From an uncultured Sterolibacterium sp. (GTDB lineage Bacteria > Pseudomonadota > Gammaproteobacteria > Burkholderiales > Rhodocyclaceae): a stretch of DNA of 64,000 nt. Both the position numbers and the translations under genes were made by a program. Below, piece by piece: positions 15,306 through 30,716 of this stretch. The notes beneath the pieces were generated by a model. That model was not told where the DNA came from. It saw nothing but the letters and a program-made list of their open reading frames with translations, and made no database searches. Position 1 is the first letter of the stretch. Each line of letters starts with the position of its first letter. The stretch is from NCBI GenBank assembly GCA_964521075.1, contig CAZFPI010000002.1:4548-68547 (forward strand), in the 5' to 3' direction.

Positions 15306-15391
15306 GCCCAAACCACCCGGCCCTATAACATGCACGAATAATGCGGTTTATGTGCCATAATTCCGCCTTTCCAACCCACCAAGGATCCATC

Positions 15392-15667: not shown

Positions 15668-16855
15668 ATGTCCCTCCTGCCGCTGCTCGCCATCAACGCG
15701 CTGTTCATGATGGCAGCAGCGGGAGGGCTGGCACTCACCACCGATGTGCCGCCCCAAGCCCTGGCCCACCTGGCACTCGCGCTGGGTGCCCTGCCGCTGA
15801 TCCTCGCGGCCATGGCCTATTTCGTGCCGGTTCTCACCCGCAGTAACGCCACGCTACCCCGCAGCCTGAGTCTGGCTCCCCTCACAGCCTGGCTGGGAGC
15901 CGCCGCCCTGATTGCCGGTTTCACGGGGGCCATGCCCTACATCGCGGCCAGCCATCTCGCCTTCCTTCTGGCCTCCGCCGCCACCCTTGCCCTGCTCCTC
16001 TGGGCCTTTGGCCGCCGACGGCGCACCGTGGGGCGAGCACACCCCGGGCTAAACTGGTATCTCGCCGCCCTGGCCTGTTTCACCCTCGCCCTGCTGGCTG
16101 TCCCCCTGATGTCCCTGTGGCCATCGCAACACCCCGCCCTGCGGCTTTTCCATCTTCATCTAAACCTCCTGGGCTTTGTTGGCCTGACGGCCATCGGCAC
16201 ACTACAAGTCCTGCTGCCGACCACACTCAGCCAGCCCGACCCCCGGGCCGCGCAACGCCTGACACAGGATCTGAAATACGCCATCGCCGGAGTGCTCCTG
16301 CTATCTGCCGCAGCGGCCTGGCTCCCCCCGCTCAGTCTCGCAGGCCTCATTCTTTACCTGATCGCGCCACTGCGAATGCTGTGGCACTGGCACGAGGATT
16401 ACCGTCAGCGGCTCACCGGAGAAAACCGTGCGAACTGCATACACGGGGCAGCCATCTCCCTGATTCTGGCCGGCACAGGGCTCATCGGTCTGCTGCTCCT
16501 CGGCCTGTCGCACAGCGGAACGATGCTGGCCGGGCTGAACGGTCGCGCCAGCATCGCTGCTTTCGTTCTCGCCTTTTTGCTGCCACTGGTCAGCGGTGCG
16601 GCCACGCAGCTGCTGCCCGTCTGGCTGCGTCCCGGCCCGCAGGGCGAGTGGCACAAGCGGATGCGCGCCAGCCTCGGTCGACAAGCCGGGCTGCGCGCCG
16701 GATTGATGGTGACAGGTGGCTGGGCTCTCGCGTTTGGCTCCCTGGCTGGCGCATGGCTTGGCGCGGCAGGCATGGCGATATTGATCGTCACCTTCCTGCG
16801 CGGCCTGTGCTTCACACGCCCCTGGCCTCGCCAGGGCAAGCTCAATTCACCGTGA
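15668..16855 (+). CDS. Polytopic inner-membrane protein, NnrS-like (tentative)
   Basis: 395 aa with about 10-12 hydrophobic helices. It has His-containing helices (LFHLHLNLLGFVGLTAIGTLQ). It is adjacent to DUF2249, a common NnrS neighbour. The family call is tentative. Confidence 0.5.
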   Translation: MSLLPLLAINALFMMAAAGGLALTTDVPPQALAHLALALGALPLILAAMAYFVPVLTRSNATLPRSLSLAPLTAWLGAAALIAGFTGAMPYIAASHLAFLLASAATLALLLWAFGRRRRTVGRAHPGLNWYLAALACFTLALLAVPLMSLWPSQHPALRLFHLHLNLLGFVGLTAIGTLQVLLPTTLSQPDPRAAQRLTQDLKYAIAGVLLLSAAAAWLPPLSLAGLILYLIAPLRMLWHWHEDYRQRLTGENRANCIHGAAISLILAGTGLIGLLLLGLSHSGTMLAGLNGRASIAAFVLAFLLPLVSGAATQLLPVWLRPGPQGEWHKRMRASLGRQAGLRAGLMVTGGWALAFGSLAGAWLGAAGMAILIVTFLRGLCFTRPWPRQGKLNSP

Positions 16856-19013
16856 CATTGACCGACGCCTGCCCCCCCAGCGGGGTCTTGGTCAGGATCT
16901 CCACAGGGCCGGACGGATAACTTCCCGTGCCCGTGCAGTTGGTTCCGCCATCCACCGTCATCGTCACCCAGCTTCCCCCCGCATGCGTCGTATCACCCAC
17001 CGGTGAACCCGAGCCTATCGCCACCGTTGCAGCCGACGGCGTGGAAGCCGGTTCAGTGAAAGTCACGGTATTCGTGCCGATACTCACCTGCGTTCCCGAA
17101 GGCATCGGGTTATTGTTGCGGTCCATCAGCCAGAAGCCGAATGTCCGCGTGCAGGCACTACTCATGGCAAAACTGGTCTGGGACAATTTCGGATAAGAAT
17201 CTGACAGCACGATAACCCGGCTGCGCCGTACATAGGCCTTGCCCCAGGCCCCGCCACAGGTATTTTCCCGGCTCAGTGCGTTGGCGTAATTCGCAGGCAG
17301 GGCCGCCGTGCCGCCATTGACGTTACGGGTCAAACAGGCCACCGGCGAAGAAACGGGCGCAAAGCTCAGATACTGTTCGCGCAAATCGGGCTGAACCGGA
17401 CTCGAATCCCACTTTCCATTCTCGTTGGCATCTACAAAAGGATCGCCCAAGTCATAGAAAGTCTCACCGGCGTCGAATACATTATTGCCATTGGCATCCA
17501 GAAAACTCATCTCGCCCACGGCATAGGCCAGAACCGTGACGCGACCGTTCTGAACGAACAGAGGATTCCCGCTGCTGTCTGTGATCGCCGCCCCACTGGA
17601 ATCCACGGCGGCCACAGCACCCTGTGATTGCGCGCTGGTGAGCTCACCTTGCGGCCGATACTGGGCACTGCGGAAAGAAACCGAACAGCGTCCCGAAGAA
17701 AGAGTGCACGAAGGACTGATCTGCCCACCTTCTGCAATGAAATTGATCGCCGTACCATCCGGGGCTGGATTGCCCATCCGGTCCGAAGCGGTCACCGTCA
17801 ATGCCGTGCTCACGCCATCGTACAACCAGCCCTCGATATTGCCGGTTTCGAGGGCGAGTGAAAAGCCGTTTTGAGCCGGCAAGCCCGTTGAAACCGACAA
17901 CTGGCTGGACTGACTGACGATCCCCGTCGTGCCGCCCAGGCTCGCCCGAACCGAAACCGGGGTCGGAATCGTTCCTGCACTGACCGTGGTCAACACCTCG
18001 CCCAGCGCATCGCTCGTCGCCGTACTGGGGAAAAGCGTGGCCCCGCCCGTCCCATTTGAAGGCAGCAGGCTGAAATCGACGGACACGCCCTGACGCCCAT
18101 TGCCATTCGTGTCAATCACACGGAACTTGACCGTCGCCGTCTGGGGCAGAAGAGAACCAGCACCCTGAATACCAATCAGCGTTGGGGCAACGGAAACGAA
18201 TTGCAGATTATTGGCGGCCGGCAAGGTGACCGCCAGCGTCCCGCTGGATGAAGCCCCGCTGGCTGTTGCCGTCACGACATCCGTCCCGGATGCACAATTC
18301 TGGTCCCGGTAGGTCGTGGTCGCCACGCCATTCAGCACATTCACCGGAGAGTCGATTGTCGCCTTGCCGGAAGAGATGCAAGGAGAGGAAAAGCTGACGG
18401 AAACCTGCGGCCCTGCGGGTGCACCCTCAAGCTGCACCGGCACGCTGACCACCGTTGTCCCATAAGATGAAATCGAGGCCTGCCCGAAACTCAGCGTGCC
18501 CAACGTCACCCTTGAGGTATTGACATCCACCGCCACGGGCAAACTGGCATGGCTTTGTGTGCTGATCGTACCATCTGCCGCCTTGCTGCTGATCTGGACC
18601 GTTGCCGTGATCGCTGTAGAACCCAGTGAGTCCGAGCCGACCGCATCCACCTGGATCGAAGCCACCCCCGTGCTATCCGTGGCGACTTGAGCCGAAGCCG
18701 GGCTGAATCTTACAAAAGCGTCTTTTGCCACAAAGCTGACGAGCGTGTTTGCCAGCGGTGCTCCCCGCCCATCCTTGACCGTCGCCACCGCGTAAATAGG
18801 GGTTCCCGAATTGACCTTGCTGATCGCATTCGAACCACTTGCAGGCAATGCCGCGACCAAAACCAGCTGCACCGTTGGCGTCCCGGCCTGGCCCGTCCCG
18901 GAACCGGAAGAACCGGCTGTCTCCCCCGCGCCCCCCCCCAGACAAGCCGTCAACATCATGGCCAGCATCGCCATCCACATCCAATTCGCCACCTTCCGCC
19001 ATTGCATCATCAT
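16842..19013 (-). CDS. Large lipoprotein with repeated bacterial Ig-like (Big_1/invasin-type) modules
   Basis: 723 aa with a signal peptide and lipobox (MLAMMLTAC). It has at least 4 Ig-like repeats (e.g. ATVKDGRGAPLANTLVSFVA...STGVASIQV...TATVQ; KFRVIDTNGNGRQGVSVDFSL). The Thr/Ser/Gly/Val-rich composition suggests an extracellular protein. Confidence 0.7.
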   Translation of the reverse strand: MMMQWRKVANWMWMAMLAMMLTACLGGGAGETAGSSGSGTGQAGTPTVQLVLVAALPASGSNAISKVNSGTPIYAVATVKDGRGAPLANTLVSFVAKDAFVRFSPASAQVATDSTGVASIQVDAVGSDSLGSTAITATVQISSKAADGTISTQSHASLPVAVDVNTSRVTLGTLSFGQASISSYGTTVVSVPVQLEGAPAGPQVSVSFSSPCISSGKATIDSPVNVLNGVATTTYRDQNCASGTDVVTATASGASSSGTLAVTLPAANNLQFVSVAPTLIGIQGAGSLLPQTATVKFRVIDTNGNGRQGVSVDFSLLPSNGTGGATLFPSTATSDALGEVLTTVSAGTIPTPVSVRASLGGTTGIVSQSSQLSVSTGLPAQNGFSLALETGNIEGWLYDGVSTALTVTASDRMGNPAPDGTAINFIAEGGQISPSCTLSSGRCSVSFRSAQYRPQGELTSAQSQGAVAAVDSSGAAITDSSGNPLFVQNGRVTVLAYAVGEMSFLDANGNNVFDAGETFYDLGDPFVDANENGKWDSSPVQPDLREQYLSFAPVSSPVACLTRNVNGGTAALPANYANALSRENTCGGAWGKAYVRRSRVIVLSDSYPKLSQTSFAMSSACTRTFGFWLMDRNNNPMPSGTQVSIGTNTVTFTEPASTPSAATVAIGSGSPVGDTTHAGGSWVTMTVDGGTNCTGTGSYPSGPVEILTKTPLGGQASVNVTVN

Positions 19014-19232
19014 CCACTCCAGAGAAGTACATTTGGGGATTATGGAGCCGGAATGAACGTCTGTAGATAAAAAATCGAGGGGATTTCACCCTCTTGTCCT
19101 GACAGCCAGATTCAGAATTCGGGCTTCAATTCAAGGCATAATTCGCAAAATCATGACGAATGTCACACCCGGCCCTTTCCTCTCCTGCCCCACCCTTGCT
19201 TCCAGACAGACTTTCCTGACAGAGGCCCCTTG

Positions 19233-20288
19233 ATGACCACCGCCGCTCACCTGCAGCACTTCGGCCTGACCCGCCCGCCCTTCCAGATTCGGCCCGATAC
19301 GGATTTCTTCTTCCCGGGCAACCGCCAGGGAGAATATCTGGACGCCCTGCTGCATGTCGCCGCGCACGACGAAGGGCTCTGCATCGTCATCGCCGGTGCA
19401 GGCAGCGGAAAAACGCTCATGGCACGCCAGATGATTTCCCGGCTCCCCGAGGACATCCAGGCACTTTACCTGGCCTACCCCTGCCTCGGTCGCGGCGAAA
19501 TTCTCGATGCCATCGGCAGCGAACTGGGCATGGACTCCCTGCCCGACACGATGGATGGCAAACTCGCCATGCTGCAAGGGCAGCTCCGGCAGCGGCATGC
19601 CGACGGAAAACGGATACTGCTCGTCATCGACGAAGCGCACACCCTGCCGACCGAATCGCTCGAAGAAATCCGCATGCTCTCCGATCTGGAAGCAGAACAG
19701 CACAAACTGGTCAACATTCTGCTGCTGGGCCAACCCGGGCTGGACACCCTGCTCACCGACCCCCGCCTGCGGCAGGTGCAGGATCGCGTGATCCACCGCT
19801 TCGAGCTCACCCCTTTCTCGCGCGACGATGTTGCCGCCTATATCGACCACCGTCTGCGTGCCTCGGGCTGGCAAGGCGGCCCGCTGTTCGACGACAAGGC
19901 ACTTGACGCCATCAGCCACGCCTCCGAAGGCCGGGCGCAACGGATCAACCTGCTGGCCGATCTCTCCTTGCAGGCAGCCTGCGCCAAAGATGCCAAACAG
20001 GTTCACGCCAGCCACGTCAAACAGGCCATGGCCAGCCTACCCGACGCCCCGGCCCTGCCCCGGGAACAATCCACCCTGAAACTCCCCACCCTGCCTCGTC
20101 TGCGGCTAGCGGGCTCGCTTGCCGCGCTGGCCCTGGCAGGCACGGTTGCCTGGGCCCTCACCTTCACCGGCACGGCCTCAAAACAGGCTGCTCCGGCATC
20201 CCCCCCCCATGCCCAGGCCAAACCCCAGACCAAAGCCGGGGGCAATGCCGCCTCACCTGCCGAACCGGCAGCCACCCAACTGGCCTAA
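19233..20288 (+). CDS. ExeA/GspA/MshM-like AAA+ ATPase with C-terminal TM segment (paralog 1)
   Basis: Sequence includes HFGLTRPPFQIRPDTDFFFPG... It has Walker A (GAGSGKT) and Walker B (LLVIDEAH) motifs, then a TM helix (LAGSLAALALAGTVAWALTF) and a Pro/Ala linker. It ends at TAA 20286-20288. Confidence 0.8.
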   Translation: MTTAAHLQHFGLTRPPFQIRPDTDFFFPGNRQGEYLDALLHVAAHDEGLCIVIAGAGSGKTLMARQMISRLPEDIQALYLAYPCLGRGEILDAIGSELGMDSLPDTMDGKLAMLQGQLRQRHADGKRILLVIDEAHTLPTESLEEIRMLSDLEAEQHKLVNILLLGQPGLDTLLTDPRLRQVQDRVIHRFELTPFSRDDVAAYIDHRLRASGWQGGPLFDDKALDAISHASEGRAQRINLLADLSLQAACAKDAKQVHASHVKQAMASLPDAPALPREQSTLKLPTLPRLRLAGSLAALALAGTVAWALTFTGTASKQAAPASPPHAQAKPQTKAGGNAASPAEPAATQLA

Positions 20289-20363
20289 AACACCCACACT
20301 CCGCCACCCGGCCCATCCCCCGCAGACACACCGGCCAGCGCGGCACAAGCCACCGTCGCACCG

Positions 20364-21002
20364 GTGCGCCCTGAACCAGCATCGCCAGCTCCCGCCCCGG
20401 TCGCCGCAGCCCCGACGGCCAAACTCCCTGCCCAGTCCGCACCATCCACACCATCCGCCCCCACCTCCGCCAAAACGACACCCACCGCAACGACAGCCCC
20501 GGCGCAGGCCAATGGTGCCAGTGGAAAACCCTCGCCGAAACTGAAGCTCGACACCGAACTGGCCTCCGTGCAACGTGTCATTCCCTTCGCAGTGTATTCC
20601 GCCAGTCTCGGGCCGCGCGGACGCAAGGCCATTGCCGAAATCGTGCCGCTGGCCAAACAAGCCGAGCGCATCAATGTCCGTGGCCGCACCGACAGCTCTG
20701 GCGACCGCGAACAGAACCGAGAAATCGCCAAAGCCCGCGCCATCAGCGTCATTTACGCCTTCAAGGCCGAAGGTGTTTCGCGCAAAATCATGAAAGCCAC
20801 CTACTGCACCCGCTGCTTCGTCGCCACGAACGACACGGCAGAAGGCCGCCGCGCCAACCGCCGCGTCGATGTCGAACTGGTCATGCCAGCCAAGCTGGCC
20901 CTGCACCTGCCCAAACCGGTCTATTCCGCGCCGGACGTCGACAACGGCCCGGTACTGCTGGCGCGTCTGGACGACCGTTTCATGGAATTCGGCCACCGCT
21001 GA
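20364..21002 (+). CDS. OmpA_C-like peptidoglycan-binding module with no signal peptide or credible start; probably the detached C-terminus of the preceding ExeA-like gene
   Basis: It is in the same reading frame as 19233..20288, and the frame stays open from 20289 onward. A Pro/Ala/Thr linker precedes the OmpA-like core (INVRGRTDSSGDREQNREIAKARA...AEGRRANRRVDVELV). The only start candidate is GTG 20364, which has no SD sequence. Confidence 0.6.
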   Translation: MRPEPASPAPAPVAAAPTAKLPAQSAPSTPSAPTSAKTTPTATTAPAQANGASGKPSPKLKLDTELASVQRVIPFAVYSASLGPRGRKAIAEIVPLAKQAERINVRGRTDSSGDREQNREIAKARAISVIYAFKAEGVSRKIMKATYCTRCFVATNDTAEGRRANRRVDVELVMPAKLALHLPKPVYSAPDVDNGPVLLARLDDRFMEFGHR

Positions 21003-21039
21003 CCCCATCGCCTCCGTCACCTGACCGCCCTTCACTGCC

Positions 21040-22173
21040 ATGTCCATCCTCTATCTGGAACACTTCGGCCTCTCCAGGCCGCCCTTCCAGATCACCCCAG
21101 ACACGGATTACTTCTACACCGGCGGCCAGCGAGGCGAGCTCCGCTCTGCCCTGCTGCATGTCGCCGTACATGACGAAGGTATCAGCACGATCGTCGCCGA
21201 AATCGGCAGCGGCAAGACGCTGCTCGCGCGGCAGATGCTGGGAGACCTGCCCAAAGACATCACCACGATCTACCTGGCCAACCCCTGCTTCAGCCGGGAA
21301 GAAATCCTCAGTGCCATCGGCCGCGATCTGGGCATGGAAAACATGCCCGCCTCCATCGAAGCCAAACTCGCCGCACTGCATCGGGAACTGCTCCGCCGCC
21401 ATGGCAACGGCGAACGGGTGCTCCTCGTCATCGACGAAGCCCACGCCATGCCGGCCGAATCCCTCGAAGAAGTCCGGCTGCTCTCCAACATCGAAACCGG
21501 CAGCCACAAGCTCGTCAATATCCTGCTGTTCGGCCAGCCCGAGCTCGACGAGCTCCTGAGCGAACCCCGTCTGCGGCAAGTGCGTGACCGCATCATCCAC
21601 CGCTTCACCCTCACCCCCTTCTCCCGTGCCGATGGCCTGGCCTATCTCAATCACCGCCTGCACATCGCGGGCTGGCACGGCGGCCCCATTTTCACGCGCG
21701 GCGCGATCAGGCTCCTGATGAAAGCCTCCGGCGGACGCGCCCGGCGCATCAACCTGCTCGCCGACAAATCCCTGCTGGCCGCCTATGCCGAACAGGCCCG
21801 CAAGGTCACCTGGCGGCATGTACGCAATGCCTGCAAGGATTTCGAGCCCCGGCGACATAAAAAACACCGCCCGGCCTGGCTTGCCCGGCCAGCCAGCACC
21901 AGCGCGGCCACACACACCGCCCCCCAGTTTTCCTGGCTGCAGGTTTTCGTACTGAGCCTGGCCGCATCCATTCTCGCGGCCACCGCCGCCCTGATATTCA
22001 CCAGAACATCGCCCCCCTGGAAAGCTCTGGAACCGGGCATCCTGCCCCAGGCAAACACAGCGGCCGCATCAACCGCATCAACCGCATCAACCGCATCGAC
22101 CACATTGGCCACAACACCCGCCCCGGGCAAAAAAACAACGCCTACCACCCCCTTAACTAAAGTAAAACCTTGA
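21040..22173 (+). CDS. ExeA/GspA/MshM-like AAA+ ATPase with C-terminal TM segment (paralog 2)
   Basis: Sequence includes HFGLSRPPFQITPDTDYFYTG..., EIGSGKT, LLVIDEAH and a TM helix (VFVLSLAASILAATAALIF). It has a short Ala/Ser/Thr/Pro tail. By eye it is about 55-60% identical to paralog 1 over the ATPase domain. Confidence 0.8.
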   Translation: MSILYLEHFGLSRPPFQITPDTDYFYTGGQRGELRSALLHVAVHDEGISTIVAEIGSGKTLLARQMLGDLPKDITTIYLANPCFSREEILSAIGRDLGMENMPASIEAKLAALHRELLRRHGNGERVLLVIDEAHAMPAESLEEVRLLSNIETGSHKLVNILLFGQPELDELLSEPRLRQVRDRIIHRFTLTPFSRADGLAYLNHRLHIAGWHGGPIFTRGAIRLLMKASGGRARRINLLADKSLLAAYAEQARKVTWRHVRNACKDFEPRRHKKHRPAWLARPASTSAATHTAPQFSWLQVFVLSLAASILAATAALIFTRTSPPWKALEPGILPQANTAAASTASTASTASTTLATTPAPGKKTTPTTPLTKVKP

Positions 22174-22236
22174 CATTTCAAGGTATCCCATTGATATTCA
22201 AAGCCGTATAAAGAATTTCCTACAGGACACCTCACC

Positions 22237-24090
22237 GTGACGCCCTCCGCTGCCTCCCGATCCAACGGCAAAATGCTGCGTCCAGACCTTGGCCTGTGGC
22301 TACTGCCAGCACTGCTCACTGCCTGCGCCACCCAGCCCCCCGCACCTTCCGACAAGCACCTGGCTCCCCAAACAGCCATCGACGGCCGCGCCCCCGACTT
22401 CCTCACCCAGCCCCCCCTGCCCCCGGCTCCCCGCCCACAAGCCCGGCCGGAGCTCTACAGCGTCGTGGTCCACAATATCGACGTTCAGCAGCTCCTCTTT
22501 GCCCTCGCGCGGGACGCAAAAATGAATATCGACGTTCATCCGGGGATCGAAGGCACGATCACCATGAACGTGCTGGACCAGACGCTGCCTGAAATCCTCG
22601 ACCGCATCGCCACCCAGGTCGACATGCGCTATGAAATCAACGGCAAGAACCTCTCCATCCAGCCAGACAGCCCCTACCTGAAAAGCTACCGTATCGACTA
22701 CCCGAACATCCGGCGCGATGCCCAAAGCACGGTCAGCACCTCCACCAACATCGGCGCATCGGGCAGCAACACCGGTGGTTCAGGAGGCAGCTCAGGCAAC
22801 AACTCCTCCAACACCACCCTCGCAAGCATCACCAACAACCGCTTCTGGGAAACGCTAACGACCAATCTGCGCGACATCCTGCGCGAAACAGACAAAATCC
22901 TGCCGGAAGGCTCCAGCGAAACCGTTACCGAACAAAGCAGCCAGCAAACCGCCCAGGCCCAACCCGGCCAGACCGCTGCCGAACCCGCCGCCAGCCCAAG
23001 CGGACGAAATACCCGCCGGGAAGCCATCCCGGCCCAGCTGAACCAGCAAGGGGCTACCACCGTCCGCCGCACCACCTTCCGCGAAGCCGCCTCGGTCATC
23101 GTCAATGCCGAAACCGGCCTCGTCAGTGTGCGTGCCACGGCGCGCCAGCACGAAAAAATCCGCGAATTCCTGGGAGGCATTCTCAGCAGCGCGCGCCGCC
23201 AGGTACTGATCGAAGCCACCATCATCGAAGTCGACCTCTCCGACCGCTTCCAGCAAGGCATCGACTGGAGCATCGTGCGAAAAATCGGCAGCTCGACAGG
23301 CTCCAGCCTCACGATGCAGCCGGCAGGCCCGGCCGCATCCGGCATGCTCACCGGCGGGCTCGTCAGCACCTTGGCTTCGCTCACCTGGAAAAAGAGCAGT
23401 GCCGAAGCCGACATCAGTGCAGCCATCAAGATGCTCGAATCCTTCGGAACCCTGCGTGTTCTCTCCAGCCCGAAAATCTCCGTCCTCAACAGCCAGACCA
23501 GCCTGCTCAAGGTTGTCGATAACCAGGTTTATTTCAACATCACCGTCACCCCCGGCACCCCGGCCACGGCCACAGCACCGGCAACCCAGCCCACCTACAG
23601 CAGCACGCTGAACACCGTCCCCATCGGCTTTCTGATGACCGTCACCCCGCAAATCAGCGACAACGGCGAAGTCACGCTCAACCTGCGCCCCAGCATCAGC
23701 CGCATCAGCGGCTACGCGCTCGACCCCAACCCCATCCTGGCCCAGAACAACATCACCAACCCCGTTCCCATCATCCAGACCCGGGAAATGGAATCCGTCA
23801 TGCGGGTGCAATCCGGCGATGTCGCCATCCTGGGCGGTCTGATGCAAGACGGCCGCGACAACAAATCCGACGAAGTCCCGATCCTGAACAAAATCCCCTT
23901 CCTGGGCGAGCTCTTCAAGTTCAAGGACAACAGCAGCCGAAAATCCGAACTCGTCGTCTTCCTGCGCCCCACCGTACTCAAGGACGCCAGCCTGGATGGC
24001 GATTTCAGCACCTACCGCAACGTCCTGCCGAATGCCATTCGCGCCATGCAAGCCCCGTCTGAACAAGTCCGCACCGGGAATGCCCCATGA
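22237..24090 (+). CDS. Secretin (MshL/PilQ/GspD family) with lipoprotein signal
   Basis: 617 aa; an alternative ATG at 22273 gives MLRPDLGLWLLPALLTAC, which contains a lipobox. The C-terminal secretin domain includes LRVLSSPKISVLNSQTS...VPILNKIPFLGELFKFKDNSSRKSELVVFLRPTVL. Confidence 0.85.
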   Translation: MTPSAASRSNGKMLRPDLGLWLLPALLTACATQPPAPSDKHLAPQTAIDGRAPDFLTQPPLPPAPRPQARPELYSVVVHNIDVQQLLFALARDAKMNIDVHPGIEGTITMNVLDQTLPEILDRIATQVDMRYEINGKNLSIQPDSPYLKSYRIDYPNIRRDAQSTVSTSTNIGASGSNTGGSGGSSGNNSSNTTLASITNNRFWETLTTNLRDILRETDKILPEGSSETVTEQSSQQTAQAQPGQTAAEPAASPSGRNTRREAIPAQLNQQGATTVRRTTFREAASVIVNAETGLVSVRATARQHEKIREFLGGILSSARRQVLIEATIIEVDLSDRFQQGIDWSIVRKIGSSTGSSLTMQPAGPAASGMLTGGLVSTLASLTWKKSSAEADISAAIKMLESFGTLRVLSSPKISVLNSQTSLLKVVDNQVYFNITVTPGTPATATAPATQPTYSSTLNTVPIGFLMTVTPQISDNGEVTLNLRPSISRISGYALDPNPILAQNNITNPVPIIQTREMESVMRVQSGDVAILGGLMQDGRDNKSDEVPILNKIPFLGELFKFKDNSSRKSELVVFLRPTVLKDASLDGDFSTYRNVLPNAIRAMQAPSEQVRTGNAP

Positions 24091-25700
24091 GCCTGCTCCT
24101 CGACGCCCTGCAACGCGCCAGCCAGGAAAAAGCCGCCACAGCAGGCAAAGTGGCCGAATCTGCCGAAACCACCAAAGCCGCCGGGGCCGACCAGGCTACG
24201 GAGGCGGCGAAAAAATCCCCCGCACCGCCTCCGCCGGAAAAGCCCGCCAGGCCACCCGTCGAACTCTCTCTGGAGCCCACGACAGCCCGGGCAATCCCCA
24301 CGCCTCCCCCCCCCGCGGCATCTCCGGCAGCCACCTTGCCGCCGGAAACGCCCCCCCTGATACCGCCCCTGACACTGGCTCCTGCCCCGGCCACGGACAC
24401 TTCCAAACCCGCGCCGGAAAAACTCTCTATCGCCCCTCCTCCCCCGGCGGACACAAAAATCCCGGAACCTGCAGCATCAACCCTCCCGCCGCCCCAGCCG
24501 GTTACACCGCCGCCCCCCCCCGACACCCGCCCCCCCATCGCTGCCGTGCCGGATACCGCCGGGCCTGCCACCGCCCTGCCCCGCAAGGAGCCCCCTCTCC
24601 CCGGGGCCAATACCTCGACAGCGCGAGACATCCTCATCGCGCAGCAGCCCGCCAGACCGCCTTCCCGCCAACGTACCCTGGCACTGGCTGCCACCGGCGT
24701 TTTTGTCGGCCTGCTCACAGGCAGCTTCTTCCTGGGCTACTGGGATCCGCTTTTCAACACCTCCCCGGGCATCGTGCCCCCCCACGCTTCCCTTCCCGCC
24801 GAAACCCACGCCCCGTCTGCTCCGCCTGTCTCGCCACCTGAGGACACCCCAAGCAACACCCCAAGCACTGCAAACGCAGCGAGTGCCACGCCCACAACCC
24901 CCCCCGTACCCGACCGCCCGGCACGGCAGACCGCCCCTGCGCGTCTGCCCGCCAGTGTGGATACGGCACGCACCGCACACACCGCACGCACCGCCCGCCC
25001 GGCCACGGCGGCCAGAATTGCAGGTGTTGCCAGCCCCGCCAGTGCCGCACAATCCGGCAAACCTGCCATCACCCGCAGCAATGCGGCAGCCTCCTCCCCG
25101 CTGGAAACGGCCTACCGCGCCCTGACCCAGGGCCGCTACGCCGAAGCCACCCAAGCCTACCGCCAGGCCCTCCAGAACAATCCGGAAGAACGCGATGCCC
25201 TGCTGGGCCTGGCCTATATCGCCCACCGCCAGGGCAACCGTGACGAAGCCCGCGATTACTACCAGCGCGCCTTGCGGACAGACCCCGACAACACCACCGC
25301 CCGCGCCGGCCTGCTGGCACTGGCGGCAGAAGGCAACCCGCAAGAAGCCGCCGGAGCTGCCCGCGACCTGAGCGAAGCTCACCCGCGTTCTGCCAGCGCG
25401 CTGGCCACGCTCGGCGGCATTCTCGCCAGGGAAGGGCGGCTGGCCGACGCGCAACAAGCCTTTTTCAAGGCCGCGAGCCTTGAACCTGCCAACCCGGCCT
25501 ACGCCTACAACCTCGCCGTCGCCCTCGACCGTCTGCACAAGCCGGTTCAGGCAGCGGATTACTACACCCGCGCCCTGCATCTGGCCGAACAGGCAGGCAA
25601 CCCCGACGCCATCCCCCGGGCAAGTGCCCTGCAACGCCTGGAACAACTGCGCGGCGTCATCGCTGCCCGGACGACCGCTCAAGACACCACCGCCCCATGA
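24087..25700 (+). CDS. Bitopic protein with GspB/MshN-like N-terminus, Pro-rich regions, one TM segment and a C-terminal TPR domain
   Basis: The MSLLLDALQRA start is typical of GspB-like proteins. About 190 aa of Pro-rich cytoplasmic sequence follows, then a TM helix (LALAATGVFVGLLTGSFFLGYW). TPR repeats come last (YRQALQNNPEERDALLGLAYIA...YYQRALRTDPDN...). ATGA overlaps on both sides. Confidence 0.65.
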   Translation: MSLLLDALQRASQEKAATAGKVAESAETTKAAGADQATEAAKKSPAPPPPEKPARPPVELSLEPTTARAIPTPPPPAASPAATLPPETPPLIPPLTLAPAPATDTSKPAPEKLSIAPPPPADTKIPEPAASTLPPPQPVTPPPPPDTRPPIAAVPDTAGPATALPRKEPPLPGANTSTARDILIAQQPARPPSRQRTLALAATGVFVGLLTGSFFLGYWDPLFNTSPGIVPPHASLPAETHAPSAPPVSPPEDTPSNTPSTANAASATPTTPPVPDRPARQTAPARLPASVDTARTAHTARTARPATAARIAGVASPASAAQSGKPAITRSNAAASSPLETAYRALTQGRYAEATQAYRQALQNNPEERDALLGLAYIAHRQGNRDEARDYYQRALRTDPDNTTARAGLLALAAEGNPQEAAGAARDLSEAHPRSASALATLGGILAREGRLADAQQAFFKAASLEPANPAYAYNLAVALDRLHKPVQAADYYTRALHLAEQAGNPDAIPRASALQRLEQLRGVIAARTTAQDTTAP

Positions 25701-27421
25701 ACGCGCCCAAGCCCGCCAATGGCAAACCCGTCCGCATTGGCGACCTGCTGATCGAACGCGGCCTGCTCACGCAGGATCAACTCCGCATCGCCCTGCACGA
25801 GCAAAAATCCTCCGGAAAACAACTGGGCGAAACCCTCATCGCGCTGGGCTTCATCACCGAAGAAGCCATGCGTGGCGCGCTGGCCGACAACCTGGGCGAA
25901 CAGGCCATCAGTCTCAAGGGCATCGCAGCGGACGCCCGCGCCCTGGAGCTCATCCCGAAACAGATCGCCAAGCACCACACCCTGTTTCCGGTCAGTTTCA
26001 ATGTCGAGAAGAACGAGCTGCTGATTGCCTGTGCCGACCCCAACGACATCGTCGCCAGCGACCAGATCAACGCCCTGCTCGGCAGCAGCCCCGGCTCGCC
26101 CACCCCCGTCTGGCGGCTGGCTTCGGGCAACGAAATCCTCCCGGCCATCGAGCAGTTCTACGGCCACGAGCTTTCCATCGACGGCATCCTCCACGAGCTG
26201 GAAACCGGCAACGTCGACATGACCAGCCTTTCGCTGGGCACGCAAGGCTACAGCCACCCCGTCGTCCGCCTCATGGATTCCCTCCTCGTCGATGCCACCT
26301 TGCGCGGCGCATCCGACATCCACTTCGAACCGGAAGCGCAATTCCTGCGTATCCGTTACCGCATCGATGGCGTCCTGCGCCAGGTACGCATCCTGCACAT
26401 GCGTTACTGGTCGGCCATGGTTGTCCGCCTCAAGGTGATGGCCGGCATGAACATCGCCGAAACCCGCGCCCCGCAAGATGGCCGGATTTCGCTCTCGATC
26501 TCCGGCAGCCCGGTCGACTTCCGCTGCGCGGCGCAGCCCACCATCCACGGCGAAAACTTCGTCCTGCGGATTCTCGACCGCAAGCGCGGCATCGTGCCGC
26601 TCACCGGCCTGGGCCTGTCCGACCACCAGCTGACGCTGCTCCAGCTCATGCTGGCCCGCCCCGAAGGCATCATGCTGGTCACCGGGCCTACCGGCTCGGG
26701 CAAGACAACCACGCTCTACTCCATCCTCGGCCACCTGAACGATGAGGGCGTAAACATCATGACCCTCGAAGACCCGGTCGAGTACCCGATGCCCATCATC
26801 CGCCAGACATCGATTTCCGAAGCCGTGAAAATGGATTTCGCCGAAGGGATCCGTTCGATGATGCGGCAAGACCCGGACATCATCCTCGTGGGCGAAATCC
26901 GCGACCACGACACCGCAGAAATGGCCCTGCGCGCCGCGATGACCGGCCACCAGGTCTTTTCCACCCTCCACACCAACTCCGCCGTCCGCTCCATTCCCCG
27001 CCTGCTCGATCTGGGGATCAAACCGGATGTCCTGGCCGGCAACATCATCGGCATCGTCGGCCAGCGGCTGATCCGCACCCTCTGCAAGGCCTGCAAGAAA
27101 CCCGACACGCCCACGCCACTGGAAGCCCAGATGCTCGGCCTGGCTCCGGGTGAAGAAATCACCCTCTACCGCCCCGCAGGCTGCCCGGCCTGCGAACTCA
27201 GCGGTTACAAAGGCCGAACCTCCATCGTCGAACTGCTCAAATTCGACGGTGGTCTGGACGACCTCCTCTCCCAGCGCGCCACCCTGCACGTCCTGAACCA
27301 GTACGCCCTGGAGCGGGGGTTCATCACCATGGCCATGGATGGCCTGCGGCGGGTGCGCGAAGGGGTGACCACCCTCGAAGAAATCGCCCGGGTGGTTGAC
27401 CTCACCGATCTGGTGAGCTGA
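25697..27421 (+). CDS. mshE: GspE/PilB-family secretion ATPase of MshE type (N-terminal MshEN c-di-GMP-binding motifs)
   Basis: 574 aa. It has MshEN motifs (see findings), Walker A GPTGSGKTTT, Walker B DPDIILVGEIRD, a His box TGHQVFSTLHTN, and a tetracysteine motif CKACKK...CPAC. Confidence 0.9.
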   Translation: MNAPKPANGKPVRIGDLLIERGLLTQDQLRIALHEQKSSGKQLGETLIALGFITEEAMRGALADNLGEQAISLKGIAADARALELIPKQIAKHHTLFPVSFNVEKNELLIACADPNDIVASDQINALLGSSPGSPTPVWRLASGNEILPAIEQFYGHELSIDGILHELETGNVDMTSLSLGTQGYSHPVVRLMDSLLVDATLRGASDIHFEPEAQFLRIRYRIDGVLRQVRILHMRYWSAMVVRLKVMAGMNIAETRAPQDGRISLSISGSPVDFRCAAQPTIHGENFVLRILDRKRGIVPLTGLGLSDHQLTLLQLMLARPEGIMLVTGPTGSGKTTTLYSILGHLNDEGVNIMTLEDPVEYPMPIIRQTSISEAVKMDFAEGIRSMMRQDPDIILVGEIRDHDTAEMALRAAMTGHQVFSTLHTNSAVRSIPRLLDLGIKPDVLAGNIIGIVGQRLIRTLCKACKKPDTPTPLEAQMLGLAPGEEITLYRPAGCPACELSGYKGRTSIVELLKFDGGLDDLLSQRATLHVLNQYALERGFITMAMDGLRRVREGVTTLEEIARVVDLTDLVS

Positions 27422-27428
27422 GCCTGCC

Positions 27429-28628
27429 ATGCCGCACTACCGCTACCGCGCTGCCGATGCCTCGGGAAACATCGCCAAAGGGGTGGTCGAGGCCCTGAAT
27501 GAAGCCGATCTCGAAGCCCAGCTCAGAAACCACGGCCTGTCGCTGATCGAAGCTACCGAAGCCAAGCCCCGACAAATCAACGTCAAAAGCCTGCCGCCGC
27601 GTGAAGTCATCAACTTCCTCTTTCAGCTCGAAATGCAGGTTCGCGGCGGTGTTCCCATCCGCACGGCCCTGGCCGACATGGGCGAAGACGCAGAATCCAC
27701 CGAGTCCCGAAACCTGGCGGCGGGCCTGACCGAAAAAATCAGTGCCGGGGCCACACTCGCTGAAGCCATCAACGGCTACCCGGGCATCTTCTCCGAAGTC
27801 GTCCGCAGCCTCATCCATGCGGGCGAAGCCTCCGGGCAACTCCCCGAAGTCCTGCGTGAAATCGTCCGTTCGCTCAAGTGGCAGGACGAAATGGCCGCCG
27901 AAACCAAGAAGCTGCTGATGTACCCCAGCTTCATCATCGTCGTCATCAGCGGCGTGGTTTTCTTCCTGATGATCTACCTTGTGCCGCAACTGGTGGGCTT
28001 TCTTACCAACATGGGCCAGGAAATCCCGATCCAGACCCGCGCCCTCATCTTCCTCTCCGGCATTTTTGTTCACTACTGGTGGGCCATCATCACCTTCCCC
28101 GTCGTGGCCGGCATCGGCATTGCCACCCTCGTTCGGGTCAATCCCAAAGCACGTTTCCAGCTGCACCGGCTGATTCTCGCTCTCCCTTATGTCGGCCTCA
28201 TCATCAAGAAAATCATCCTGGCGCGCTTTGCCGACACCTTCGCCCTCATGTACCGCACCGGCATCCCCATGCTCGAAGGGCTTGTCTATTGCGAGAAAGT
28301 CACGGGCAACCTCGCCATCCAGCAAGCCGTCGCCCGCGCGCGCGACCGCATCGCCAACGGCGAGCCCATCTCCGCCAGCTTCGCCACCGAAACCCTCTTT
28401 CCCAACATCGTCATCCGCATGCTGAAAGTCGGCGAATCCACCGGCGCGCTCGACGAAGCCCTGAGCAACATCAACTACTTTTATTCACGCGACATCGAAG
28501 AATCCATCGGCAAGGTGCAAGCCATGATCGAGCCGGCCATCACGGTCATCATGGGCCTAATCCTCGGCTGGATCATGCTGGCCGTCCTGAGCCCGATCTA
28601 CGACACCCTCACGAAGATGAAGACGTAA
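27429..28628 (+). CDS. GspF/PilC/MshG-family inner-membrane platform protein
   Basis: 399 aa with two T2SSF-type repeats (LRNHGLSLIE...GEASGQLPEVL and ...GESTGALDEAL) and three TM segments. Confidence 0.9.
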   Translation: MPHYRYRAADASGNIAKGVVEALNEADLEAQLRNHGLSLIEATEAKPRQINVKSLPPREVINFLFQLEMQVRGGVPIRTALADMGEDAESTESRNLAAGLTEKISAGATLAEAINGYPGIFSEVVRSLIHAGEASGQLPEVLREIVRSLKWQDEMAAETKKLLMYPSFIIVVISGVVFFLMIYLVPQLVGFLTNMGQEIPIQTRALIFLSGIFVHYWWAIITFPVVAGIGIATLVRVNPKARFQLHRLILALPYVGLIIKKIILARFADTFALMYRTGIPMLEGLVYCEKVTGNLAIQQAVARARDRIANGEPISASFATETLFPNIVIRMLKVGESTGALDEALSNINYFYSRDIEESIGKVQAMIEPAITVIMGLILGWIMLAVLSPIYDTLTKMKT

Positions 28629-28638
28629 GCCCCAGCCC

Positions 28639-30102
28639 ATGACCACGCTCCTTCATCTCACGGCCGCCGGCCCGCAATACTGGCGTCGCCTGCGCGGCGA
28701 ATGGCAACCTCTCGCCGCCCCGCCCGACACGCCCAGGCCCGTCTGGATCGTCACCGATCTGGCCGAAGAAACCCTGGTCGACATCGACATCCCCCGCCTT
28801 TACGGAGCCAACCGGAATACCCTGCTGGAACGCCAGCTCACCACGCGCTTCCCGGACACGCCCTACCGTCGCACACTGGACATCGCCCACGGCACAACCC
28901 TGCTCGACCGGCTGGCTCCGGTCAAACACACCCTCTTCGGCCTGCCCGCCGCCAAACGCATCGAAGACGAACTCGACGCCCGGCGACTGTCCATCGCCAC
29001 ACTCTGCCCGACCACCCTGCTGCTGGCTCACCTGGGCCAGCACAAATCCCTGCCGCCCAACCTCTTTATCGTCCTGCCTACCAGTGCCGGCCTGCGTATC
29101 GTTTTCCTCAAGAACCGGCTGCCCGTCCTGACCCGTCTGGCCCCCATCGTCAATGATGCCCGGGCACAAGCCGAAGAAATCCTGCGAACGCACCGCTATC
29201 TGGGCAATACGCGCATCCTGCCATTCGGAGCCCCCCCGCCTGCCGTCCTTCTGCTGGGCAAGGCCGACGACTTCGCCGCCCCGCTGGCCACAGCGAAAAT
29301 CGGACTCGCCCCCCCGCCAGCCTCCTGGAAAATACCCGCCGCAGACGACTGGCGGCCCTTCCTGTTCGAGCTGGCTGTCCGGAAACAGCCTTACGGGCAA
29401 CTGGCCCCCCTTCAACGGCGCATCCCCTGGATGGCCAGCCATCTGCGTCGCATGGCCCTGACCGGCGCGGCACTGACGCTTTGCACCGGGCTGACGACAG
29501 CGGCCATCAGCCTCAAGGAAATATTCGACATCCAGCGCACCAGAACAGCCGATGCCCGACTGCACCAGGAAACAAGAAGCAACCTGGATCTCATCGAAAA
29601 AACCATCGCAACCCTGGGGACTACGCCGGACAAAATGCGGCGAGCCATCGAGATCAATGACCACGAAATCATCGGCGCGCCGCCATTCGCCCGGCAAATG
29701 AAACAAATCGCCCAAGCCCTGGGTGACCCGCCGCCCGCCCGGATTGCCCTGCTCGAATGGCAGGTTTTGCCCGCCAGTGCCACTCCCTGCCAGCGATACC
29801 TGCCCCCGGCCAGTACCGATGCCGCCGCACCGGCTGAAACGACAGAAAATACCGCCGCCCCCCTGAAAGCAGAACTTGCCTTCCAGATCGCCCTGCCCAC
29901 CAGCATCAGCCCCCGCCTCAAGACAGAGGCCGTGCGCCAGATTTCCGCCCGCCTGAGCCGGATTCCCGGGGCGACACTGATTCAGGATCCGGCAAAATCG
30001 CTTTCCAAAGACACACTGCGCGGCGGCGGCTCCGCCAGCGAAGATCCGGACAAAGCCCCCCTCTGGTGTCTGACACTCGCCCCGCAGGAGAAACAGCCAT
30101 GA
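28639..30102 (+). CDS. Bitopic assembly protein, MshI / PilM-PilN-fusion / GspL-like (tentative)
   Basis: 487 aa. A roughly 270-aa cytoplasmic domain is followed by one TM helix (MALTGAALTLCTGLTTAAISL) and a periplasmic coiled-coil-like region. The size and topology match MshI/GspL. No motif-level proof. Confidence 0.45.
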   Translation: MTTLLHLTAAGPQYWRRLRGEWQPLAAPPDTPRPVWIVTDLAEETLVDIDIPRLYGANRNTLLERQLTTRFPDTPYRRTLDIAHGTTLLDRLAPVKHTLFGLPAAKRIEDELDARRLSIATLCPTTLLLAHLGQHKSLPPNLFIVLPTSAGLRIVFLKNRLPVLTRLAPIVNDARAQAEEILRTHRYLGNTRILPFGAPPPAVLLLGKADDFAAPLATAKIGLAPPPASWKIPAADDWRPFLFELAVRKQPYGQLAPLQRRIPWMASHLRRMALTGAALTLCTGLTTAAISLKEIFDIQRTRTADARLHQETRSNLDLIEKTIATLGTTPDKMRRAIEINDHEIIGAPPFARQMKQIAQALGDPPPARIALLEWQVLPASATPCQRYLPPASTDAAAPAETTENTAAPLKAELAFQIALPTSISPRLKTEAVRQISARLSRIPGATLIQDPAKSLSKDTLRGGGSASEDPDKAPLWCLTLAPQEKQP

Positions 30103-30716
30103 GCCCCCGGCGCAGCATTCTCCTCGCAGCCCGGCCCCAGCTCATCCTCCTGGCCGCAAGCCTCCTGCTGGCCATATTGCTGGGCGGCGGTGGCGTTTTC
30201 CTTGAAGAAAGGGCACAAGATGAACTTCGCCAGCAAAATAGCCAGACCCAGCGTCTGCACGACGACCTGAACGCCCGCCAGGAAGAACTCGCCTATCTGA
30301 CCAGCCACATCCAGGCCTTTCGAACACTCAAAGCCCAGGGGCTGCTGGAAGTGCCCGACCGGGAAAACTGGGTCGAAAATCTGCTATCCACCCGCCGGGA
30401 ATTGCGTCTGCCCGACACACTGGCCTACACCCTTCCCCCCTCCAGGCCCTTGGTCGACCGCCCGGATGCCACAGCTGCCACGAATACCCCGGCGGCAACC
30501 GAGCCTCCCCCGGCAGATACTCCGCTCATCTACGACCTCGAAATCCGCCTGCGAGACATCCACGAAGGCGAGCTCCTCAATTTTCTGGCAGCCTTCCAGC
30601 CCTCGATCAAGGAACATTTCCGTGTCCAGTCCTGCCTGCTGAACAACCCCGGAGCCACGGGGCTGGAAGCCCATTGCACCCTGCGTTTTTTCACCCTGCC
30701 GCCAGACACAAAATAA
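30099..30716 (+). CDS. Bitopic TM + coiled-coil protein, MshJ/PilO/GspM-like (tentative)
   Basis: 205 aa from ATG 30099, which forms an ATGA overlap with the upstream stop and has AGGAG 8 nt upstream. It has an N-terminal TM helix ([21 protein letters not shown]) followed by a coiled coil ([26 protein letters not shown]). Confidence 0.45.

Follow-up and report, generated by a model that had tools for sequence, protein, structure and literature searches.

We analyzed a stretch of 64,000 nucleotides (nt) from a metagenome-assembled genome (MAG) of an uncultured Sterolibacterium species (assembly GCA_964521075.1, contig CAZFPI010000002.1, positions 4,548 to 68,547 of the forward strand), hereafter the window, and focused on a gene in which an ExeA-like AAA+ ATPase and an OmpA-like peptidoglycan (PG)-binding domain share one frame but are separated by a stop codon. 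The gene is the first of a co-oriented cluster, with an MshL-type secretin starting 1.2 kb downstream on the same strand. A single frame runs from ATG 19233 to TGA 21000-21002 and is interrupted by TAA 20286-20288; the residues before the stop read ...AEPAATQLA, and the frame resumes directly after it with NTHTPPPGPSPADTPASAAQ (NTHTPPPGPSP...). Read through, 19233-21002 encodes 589 amino acids (aa), of which the upstream part accounts for 351 and the downstream part for 237. An earlier note on this DNA had described an ATPase open reading frame (ORF) and an OmpA-type domain in one frame split by one TAA, and the sequence, its translation and Pfam searches agree with that description.

The upstream part carries an AAA_22 domain (PF13401) at aa 46-174 (nt 19368-19754; E = 9e-21, 75 bits against a cut-off of 27), with a Walker A motif GAGSGKT and a Walker B motif LLVIDEAH. 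It also matches TIGR03015, the XrtA/PEP-CTERM-associated ATPase, at 180.7 bits, under the equivalog cut-off of 324.5, and we did not assign it to that family. A hydropathy scan revealed one transmembrane (TM) segment at aa 290-312 (nt 20100-20168), with RLR just before the peak. We infer an N-in/C-out topology in which the linker would span the periplasm and the C-terminal domain bind PG. The ~120 residues between the TM segment and the OmpA domain are of low complexity (29% Ala, 22% Pro, 21% Thr+Ser), and Pfam places OmpA (PF00691) at aa 100-191 of the downstream part (nt 20586-20861; E = 1e-9, 39 bits against a cut-off of 27.2). Between the TAA and this domain, the sole in-frame ATG, GTG or TTG is GTG 20364, which has no Shine-Dalgarno sequence in the preceding CACAAGCCACCGTCGCACCG and no hydrophobic signal after it in the hydropathy scan. 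Start-codon and hydropathy checks are thus in line with the observation, made from the letters of the window, that the downstream part lacks an in-frame ATG, a Shine-Dalgarno sequence, a signal peptide and a TM segment.

We compared this gene with its relatives by searching 40 genomes with the 589-aa read-through protein. Full-length matches to residues 1-589 without an internal stop were found in three of them (G001, 71% identity; G009, 59%; G008, 58%), and in a fourth (G003) both halves lie within one open 694-codon frame. These four genomes belong to four other species of the same genus, all Sterolibacterium-like wastewater MAGs, and their single ORFs encode 641 aa (G001), ~570 aa (G009), ~578 aa (G008) and 634 aa (G003). 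Synteny is kept in all four, with a Big_1 protein upstream and a paralogue and a secretin downstream. Since relatives match the 589-aa reading with one open ORF each, the co-linearity of the two halves is not due to chance. The alignment of orthologous loci that the earlier note had proposed therefore gives a fused gene with a sense codon at the site in the four congeneric orthologues. The opposite outcome it had named, two genes with an OmpA-like protein carrying its own start and signal peptide, did not appear, all orthologues at the locus being fused. Altogether, these sequences indicate that the ATPase and the OmpA domain are one gene, whose fused form is ancestral. Conservation within the orthologue alignment is high in the ATPase and the OmpA domain, while the TAA-bearing linker varies in length and sequence.

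A difference in the linker was also seen at the level of strains. The strain in metagenome run X13 carries two in-frame insertions, of 6 nt after 20435 and of 3 nt after 20453, along with two single-nucleotide polymorphisms (SNPs) in the same stretch (20415-20453), so that linker length is polymorphic within the species.

We then aligned to the window Logan contigs with near-identical sequence from public metagenome runs. In all 13 runs whose contigs span the site (X1-X11, X13 and X14), which come from at least 10 studies of activated sludge, wastewater, freshwater and bioreactors, 20286 is G, giving GAA (Glu), and 20300 is C, giving ACC; in run X16, 20256-20387 is not covered by a contig. Differences between the window and these populations are scattered over 12-31 kb and vary by run, and 20286 and 20300 are the two positions where every run departs from the window. 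Apart from this pair, a 7.5-kb contig from X3 (15704-23223) matches the window at every position up to 22261. With a 71-base query in which every 31-mer covers a private allele, no indexed run was found to hold the TAA/ACT haplotype; the best shares of the window's words among indexed runs were 0.93 and 0.92. The C9 run at 20200-20208, checked for slippage, has no indel in any run. An exact-pattern scan of JGI metagenome contigs, with either allele allowed, returned 0 matches and is uninformative, as that set may lack near-identical records.

Protein collections gave the same picture. Among ~15 billion proteins, the 351-aa truncated protein occurs once, on the window's own contig of 69,621 nt, and the same collection holds a 589-aa protein with E352, otherwise identical to that of the window, on a Logan contig. 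A variant with three substitutions in ENA (P0001) has E352, as does P0166. The 3' part past the TAA is 100% identical to the intact allele, and there is therefore no decay downstream of the stop. No second copy or alternative allele of the region was found inside the MAG. We also tried a genome-wide count of same-frame split ORF pairs as a proxy for the error rate and rejected it as too noisy (G+C content at third codon positions of ~0.75, abutting genes dominating the count, and a filter that missed the target pair).

We conclude that the fused gene is broken by a private G>T change, which is very probably not a programmed signal but either a consensus error or a nonsense mutation of very recent date. 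As a nonsense pseudogene presupposes, there are intact full-length orthologues and alleles. Two points weigh against this conclusion. Logan contigs drop rare variants, and a minority TAA allele in the samples would go unseen; in addition, two private changes 14 nt apart within an otherwise identical ~6.5 kb are unusual for independent point mutations. One bad read or patch would account for the pair, as would a multi-nucleotide mutation or the import of a short tract.

Between a nonsense mutation and a consensus error we see an even balance. That the TAA is purely an artefact of assembly or consensus, the organism itself having GAA, has in our estimate a little less than an even chance. The two T alleles at 20286 and 20300 appear in no other data set, and the fragmentation of the MAG (2.64 Mb in 184 contigs, N50 22 kb) suggests modest coverage. 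Nonsense codons also arise more often from random errors than from natural SNPs that survive, and G>T and C>T are classic artefact types of damaged DNA templates. However, for two linked changes to end up on one assembled path, several concordant reads are normally needed. A careful consensus is also suggested by the intact frames that the window keeps at C9 homopolymers, in which compensated indels distinguish the strains. In MAGs of this kind, errors are no more frequent than real private SNPs, and SNPs are generally clustered in this population (for example at 15309-15324 and 22163-22374).

If the TAA is real, termination might be leaky and yield a little full-length protein that tunes the ratio of tethered to free ATPase, or the stub alone might suffice; we regard this as very improbable. 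Were the stub alone enough, given that the paralogue next to it already lacks an anchor, the strain would demonstrate, as an experiment of nature, that the PG anchor can be dispensed with. Still less credible is programmed readthrough or recoding at TAA 20286 giving a mix of a short 351-aa form and a PG-anchored 589-aa form. The 237 codons open past the stop and a downstream domain without its own start or export signal would suit such a mechanism, but it is effectively excluded by the absence of the stop from every orthologue and every other sampled population of the species: a sense codon stands at the site in 4/4 congeneric orthologues and in the 13 near-identical populations, where it is GAA. 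In addition, the TAA haplotype is in no indexed run, 357 of the 1,476 long ORFs of this genome end in TAA, an ordinary terminator here, and among bacterial stops UAA leaks least. Among the three options listed in the earlier note, readthrough thus drops out, while nonsense mutation and sequencing or assembly error both stay. Equally implausible is that the ATPase and a free OmpA-like protein starting at GTG 20364 are functional genes in their own right. The OmpA-like subfamily does have stand-alone members (P0005, L026 and L027), but those carry a signal peptide and a lipobox, whereas GTG 20364 lacks a Shine-Dalgarno sequence and is followed by Pro/Ala linker without a signal. The 212-aa product of this start is absent from the called proteins of the 15-billion collection, and all orthologues at the locus are fused.

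We further investigated the domain that the stop cuts off. The predicted model of the OmpA-like domain (mean pLDDT, predicted local distance difference test, 72; 83-93 in the core) superposes on the C-terminal domain of OprF (5u1h, TM-score 0.80) and on A. baumannii OmpA with diaminopimelate (DAP) (3td4, TM-score 0.78), both with a Foldseek probability of 1.00, as well as on the PG-binding domains of YfiB, TagL, Pal and MotB. By sequence, the domain matches YiaD (2k1s, E = 3e-9) and PA0833-PD. In the alignment of the four fused orthologues (A1), GRTDSSG-x4-N-x3-AK-x-RA and NRRV are invariant, including T486, D487, R502, A503 and N542-V545 (NRRV). In OmpA-like domains, these motifs hold the Asp and Arg that bind the DAP carboxylate. 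With its PF00691 score, its modelled fold, of the beta-alpha-beta-alpha-beta-beta type, and the conserved Asp and Arg, the domain is a predicted PG binder of the OmpA_C family. A ~45-aa tail follows the OmpA fold (20862-20999; MPAKLALHLPKPVYSAPDVDNGPVLLARLDDRF...) and is conserved in fused and free forms; it is modelled at pLDDT <50, has no match to a known domain and could be a partner-binding segment.

Aeromonas ExeA is built of an AAA ATPase in the cytoplasm, one TM segment and a PG-binding domain in the periplasm; it forms multimers on PG, and the ExeD secretin needs it to leave the inner membrane and to assemble in the outer one (PMC4098917). The PG domain of GspA is PF01471, and some GspAs have no periplasmic region (PMC9239104). 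The fused protein shares with ExeA and GspA the N-terminal AAA_22-type AAA+ ATPase, the single TM segment, the terminal periplasmic PG-binding domain and the link to a secretin (PMC4098917; PMC9239104). With an AAA_22 domain bearing Walker motifs, a single TM segment and a secretin nearby, it is an ATPase of the ExeA/GspA/MshM type. We considered GspA in the strict sense, the Aeromonas/Vibrio archetype, and rejected it. Unlike GspA, the fused protein has as its PG module the OmpA-like PF00691 and not PF01471, according to Pfam on the pieces in the window and on the intact P0001; no cysteine-peptidase-like periplasmic domain was found in it, and its periplasmic part is a low-complexity Pro/Ala/Thr linker; and at the locus no GspB partner was recognised and the secretin is of the MshL type, not GspD. 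By analogy, the fused protein would work like ExeA without belonging to the GspA archetype.

The nearest sequence relatives are MshM-like/ExeA-family ATPases with a SPOR domain. A HMMER search with the intact protein against 1.84 billion representative proteins retrieved 27,376 relatives, which are 35-50% identical for these nearest ones over ATPase, TM segment and Pro-rich linker. Pfam finds a C-terminal SPOR domain in 16 of the 59 long nearest relatives and OmpA in 0 of the 59, and the C-terminal consensus of the relatives' alignment is SPOR-like (P0015, SPOR at 32.9 bits). The usual architecture of the family is accordingly ATPase, TM segment, Pro-rich linker and SPOR, and the fused protein differs from it in having a non-homologous OmpA-like domain in place of SPOR. 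No fusion of AAA_22 and OmpA was present among the top 150 of the 1.84-billion search, where the family's own representatives are fragments (P0020 and P0066). Scanning 185,579 species genomes for the domain pattern gave six loci, namely four fusions, all in this genus, and two free lipoproteins. Outside the four congeneric species and the species of the window, the OmpA-like fusion was not found. As far as the sequences tell, this is a genus-restricted swap of a non-homologous OmpA-like PG anchor for SPOR. The earlier note had proposed that the fusion recreates the ExeA architecture with an OmpA-type module. The layout of ATPase, TM segment and PG-binding domain holds, but because the nearest ATPase relatives normally carry SPOR and not PF01471, the OmpA module is a swap within an already PG-anchored family and not a re-creation of ExeA.

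Two further genomes of the genus, which lack the OmpA fusion, have a lone MshM-like gene before the secretin. In G002 (L005:1465-2532) it encodes 355 aa without a wall-binding domain, and in G010 (L008:916-2442) it encodes 509 aa with a SPOR-like C-terminus (19.5 bits). These forms show that the periplasmic module turns over rapidly within the genus.

The closest sequence relatives of the OmpA-like module are the free lipoproteins, both from one Burkholderiaceae MAG. They have a lipobox, are 312 and 323 aa long (L027:3515-4453 and L026:358-1329), match at 49% identity, and adjoin genes for ParA-like proteins, integrases and transposases. P0005 is a further free form of the subfamily, at 57% identity. 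The surroundings of the two lipoprotein genes suggest a mobile source for the OmpA-like module, which was possibly taken from the free lipoprotein lineage. In fold and in the DAP-contacting TD...R and NRRV motifs, the module resembles those of TagL/TssL of the type VI secretion system, MotB, PorE of the type IX secretion system, Pal and YiaD, in which a trans-envelope machine is likewise tethered to the wall (PMC8253398; PMC7192894). In contrast to the fused protein, none of these is fused to an ExeA-type AAA+ ATPase.

The split gene and its neighbors are listed below.

Features of the split gene and of the adjoining cluster, in window coordinates
Feature	Coordinates	Strand	Remarks
Lipoprotein, 723 aa, with Big_1 immunoglobulin-like repeats (E = 1e-14)	16842..19013	-	Divergent; syntenic in all relatives with the fused gene
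Fused gene, 5' part	19233..20285	+	Cytoplasmic ExeA/GspA/MshM-like AAA+ ATPase, TM helix, first ~40 aa of the Pro/Ala/Thr linker
In-frame TAA	20286..20288	+	T at 20286 private to this assembly; GAA (Glu352) elsewhere
Second private allele	20300	+	14 nt downstream of 20286; ACT (Thr) in the window, ACC in other runs; synonymous
Fused gene, 3' part	20289..21002	+	Remaining Pro/Ala/Thr linker, OmpA-like predicted PG-binding domain, ~45-aa conserved tail, TGA 21000-21002
Tandem paralogue: MshM/ExeA-like ATPase, TM segment, short Thr/Ala/Pro tail	21040..22173	+	No PG-binding domain; 52% identical to the fused gene
MshL-type secretin lipoprotein	22237..24090	+	Secretin PF00263, E = 3.5e-37; TIGR02519 pilus_MshL, 255.9 bits against a cut-off of 250.2
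Protein with Pro-rich N-terminus and TPR repeats	24087..25700	+	In the position of MshN
MshE-type assembly ATPase with N-terminal c-di-GMP-binding motif	25697..27421	+	T2SSE, E = 1e-121; MshEN; NF053729, 68.8 bits against a cut-off of 38
GspF/MshG-type inner-membrane platform protein	27429..28628	+	Pfam and profile matches

The MshL secretin is presumed to be the client of the two ATPases. The NF053729 match in the MshE-type ATPase indicates that the secretin/ATPase/platform machine is probably under the control of cyclic di-GMP (c-di-GMP). In the TPR/MshN-like gene, the strains in X3 and X5 have paired 1-nt indels in C runs of the Pro-rich N-terminal part (24300-24540) that restore the frame, so that strains differ in the frame in which short stretches are read. 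X3 has -1 at 24513 and +C after 24529, and X5 has +C after 24440 and -1 at 24513, together with +CCT after 24308 and -6 at 24381.

We propose that the intact protein is a 589-aa bitopic inner-membrane protein, with a cytoplasmic AAA+ ATPase, one TM segment, a periplasmic linker of ~120 aa and a C-terminal OmpA-like domain that would bind PG non-covalently through the canonical TD...RA and NRRV residues. By analogy with Aeromonas ExeA, its ATP-dependent multimerisation would probably be coupled to the cell wall, and the protein would probably help the adjacent MshL secretin to cross PG and assemble in the outer membrane, acting together with the anchorless tandem paralogue, probably as a hetero-oligomer. 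A role in secretin assembly is, by homology and gene neighborhood, probable. Two observations weigh against it. Pfam and profile searches recognised no GspB-like gene within the locus; and a scan for prepilin motifs found no pilin-like ORF anywhere along the 69.6-kb contig that contains the window, so that the secretin/ATPase/platform locus (19233-30716) has no filament genes nearby. The same scan found pilin-like ORFs on other contigs of the genome (C4, C40, C44, C51 and C140).

If the TAA is real, the strain would keep an ATPase and TM stub built like the paralogue and would have lost the wall tether, and the OmpA remnant would be unexported and probably untranslated. For annotation, the two pieces are one interrupted gene, a pseudogene or possible error, and not an ATPase next to an orphan OmpA ORF. 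The stop codon itself carries no new mechanism. The sole novelty is the exchange of OmpA for SPOR in an ExeA/MshM-like protein, a modest and incremental one. Secretin-assembly ATPases of the ExeA/MshM type exchange their wall-binding module, with PF01471 in GspA, SPOR in most close relatives and an OmpA-like domain here, which supports the view that what counts is the PG tether, whatever type of domain supplies it.

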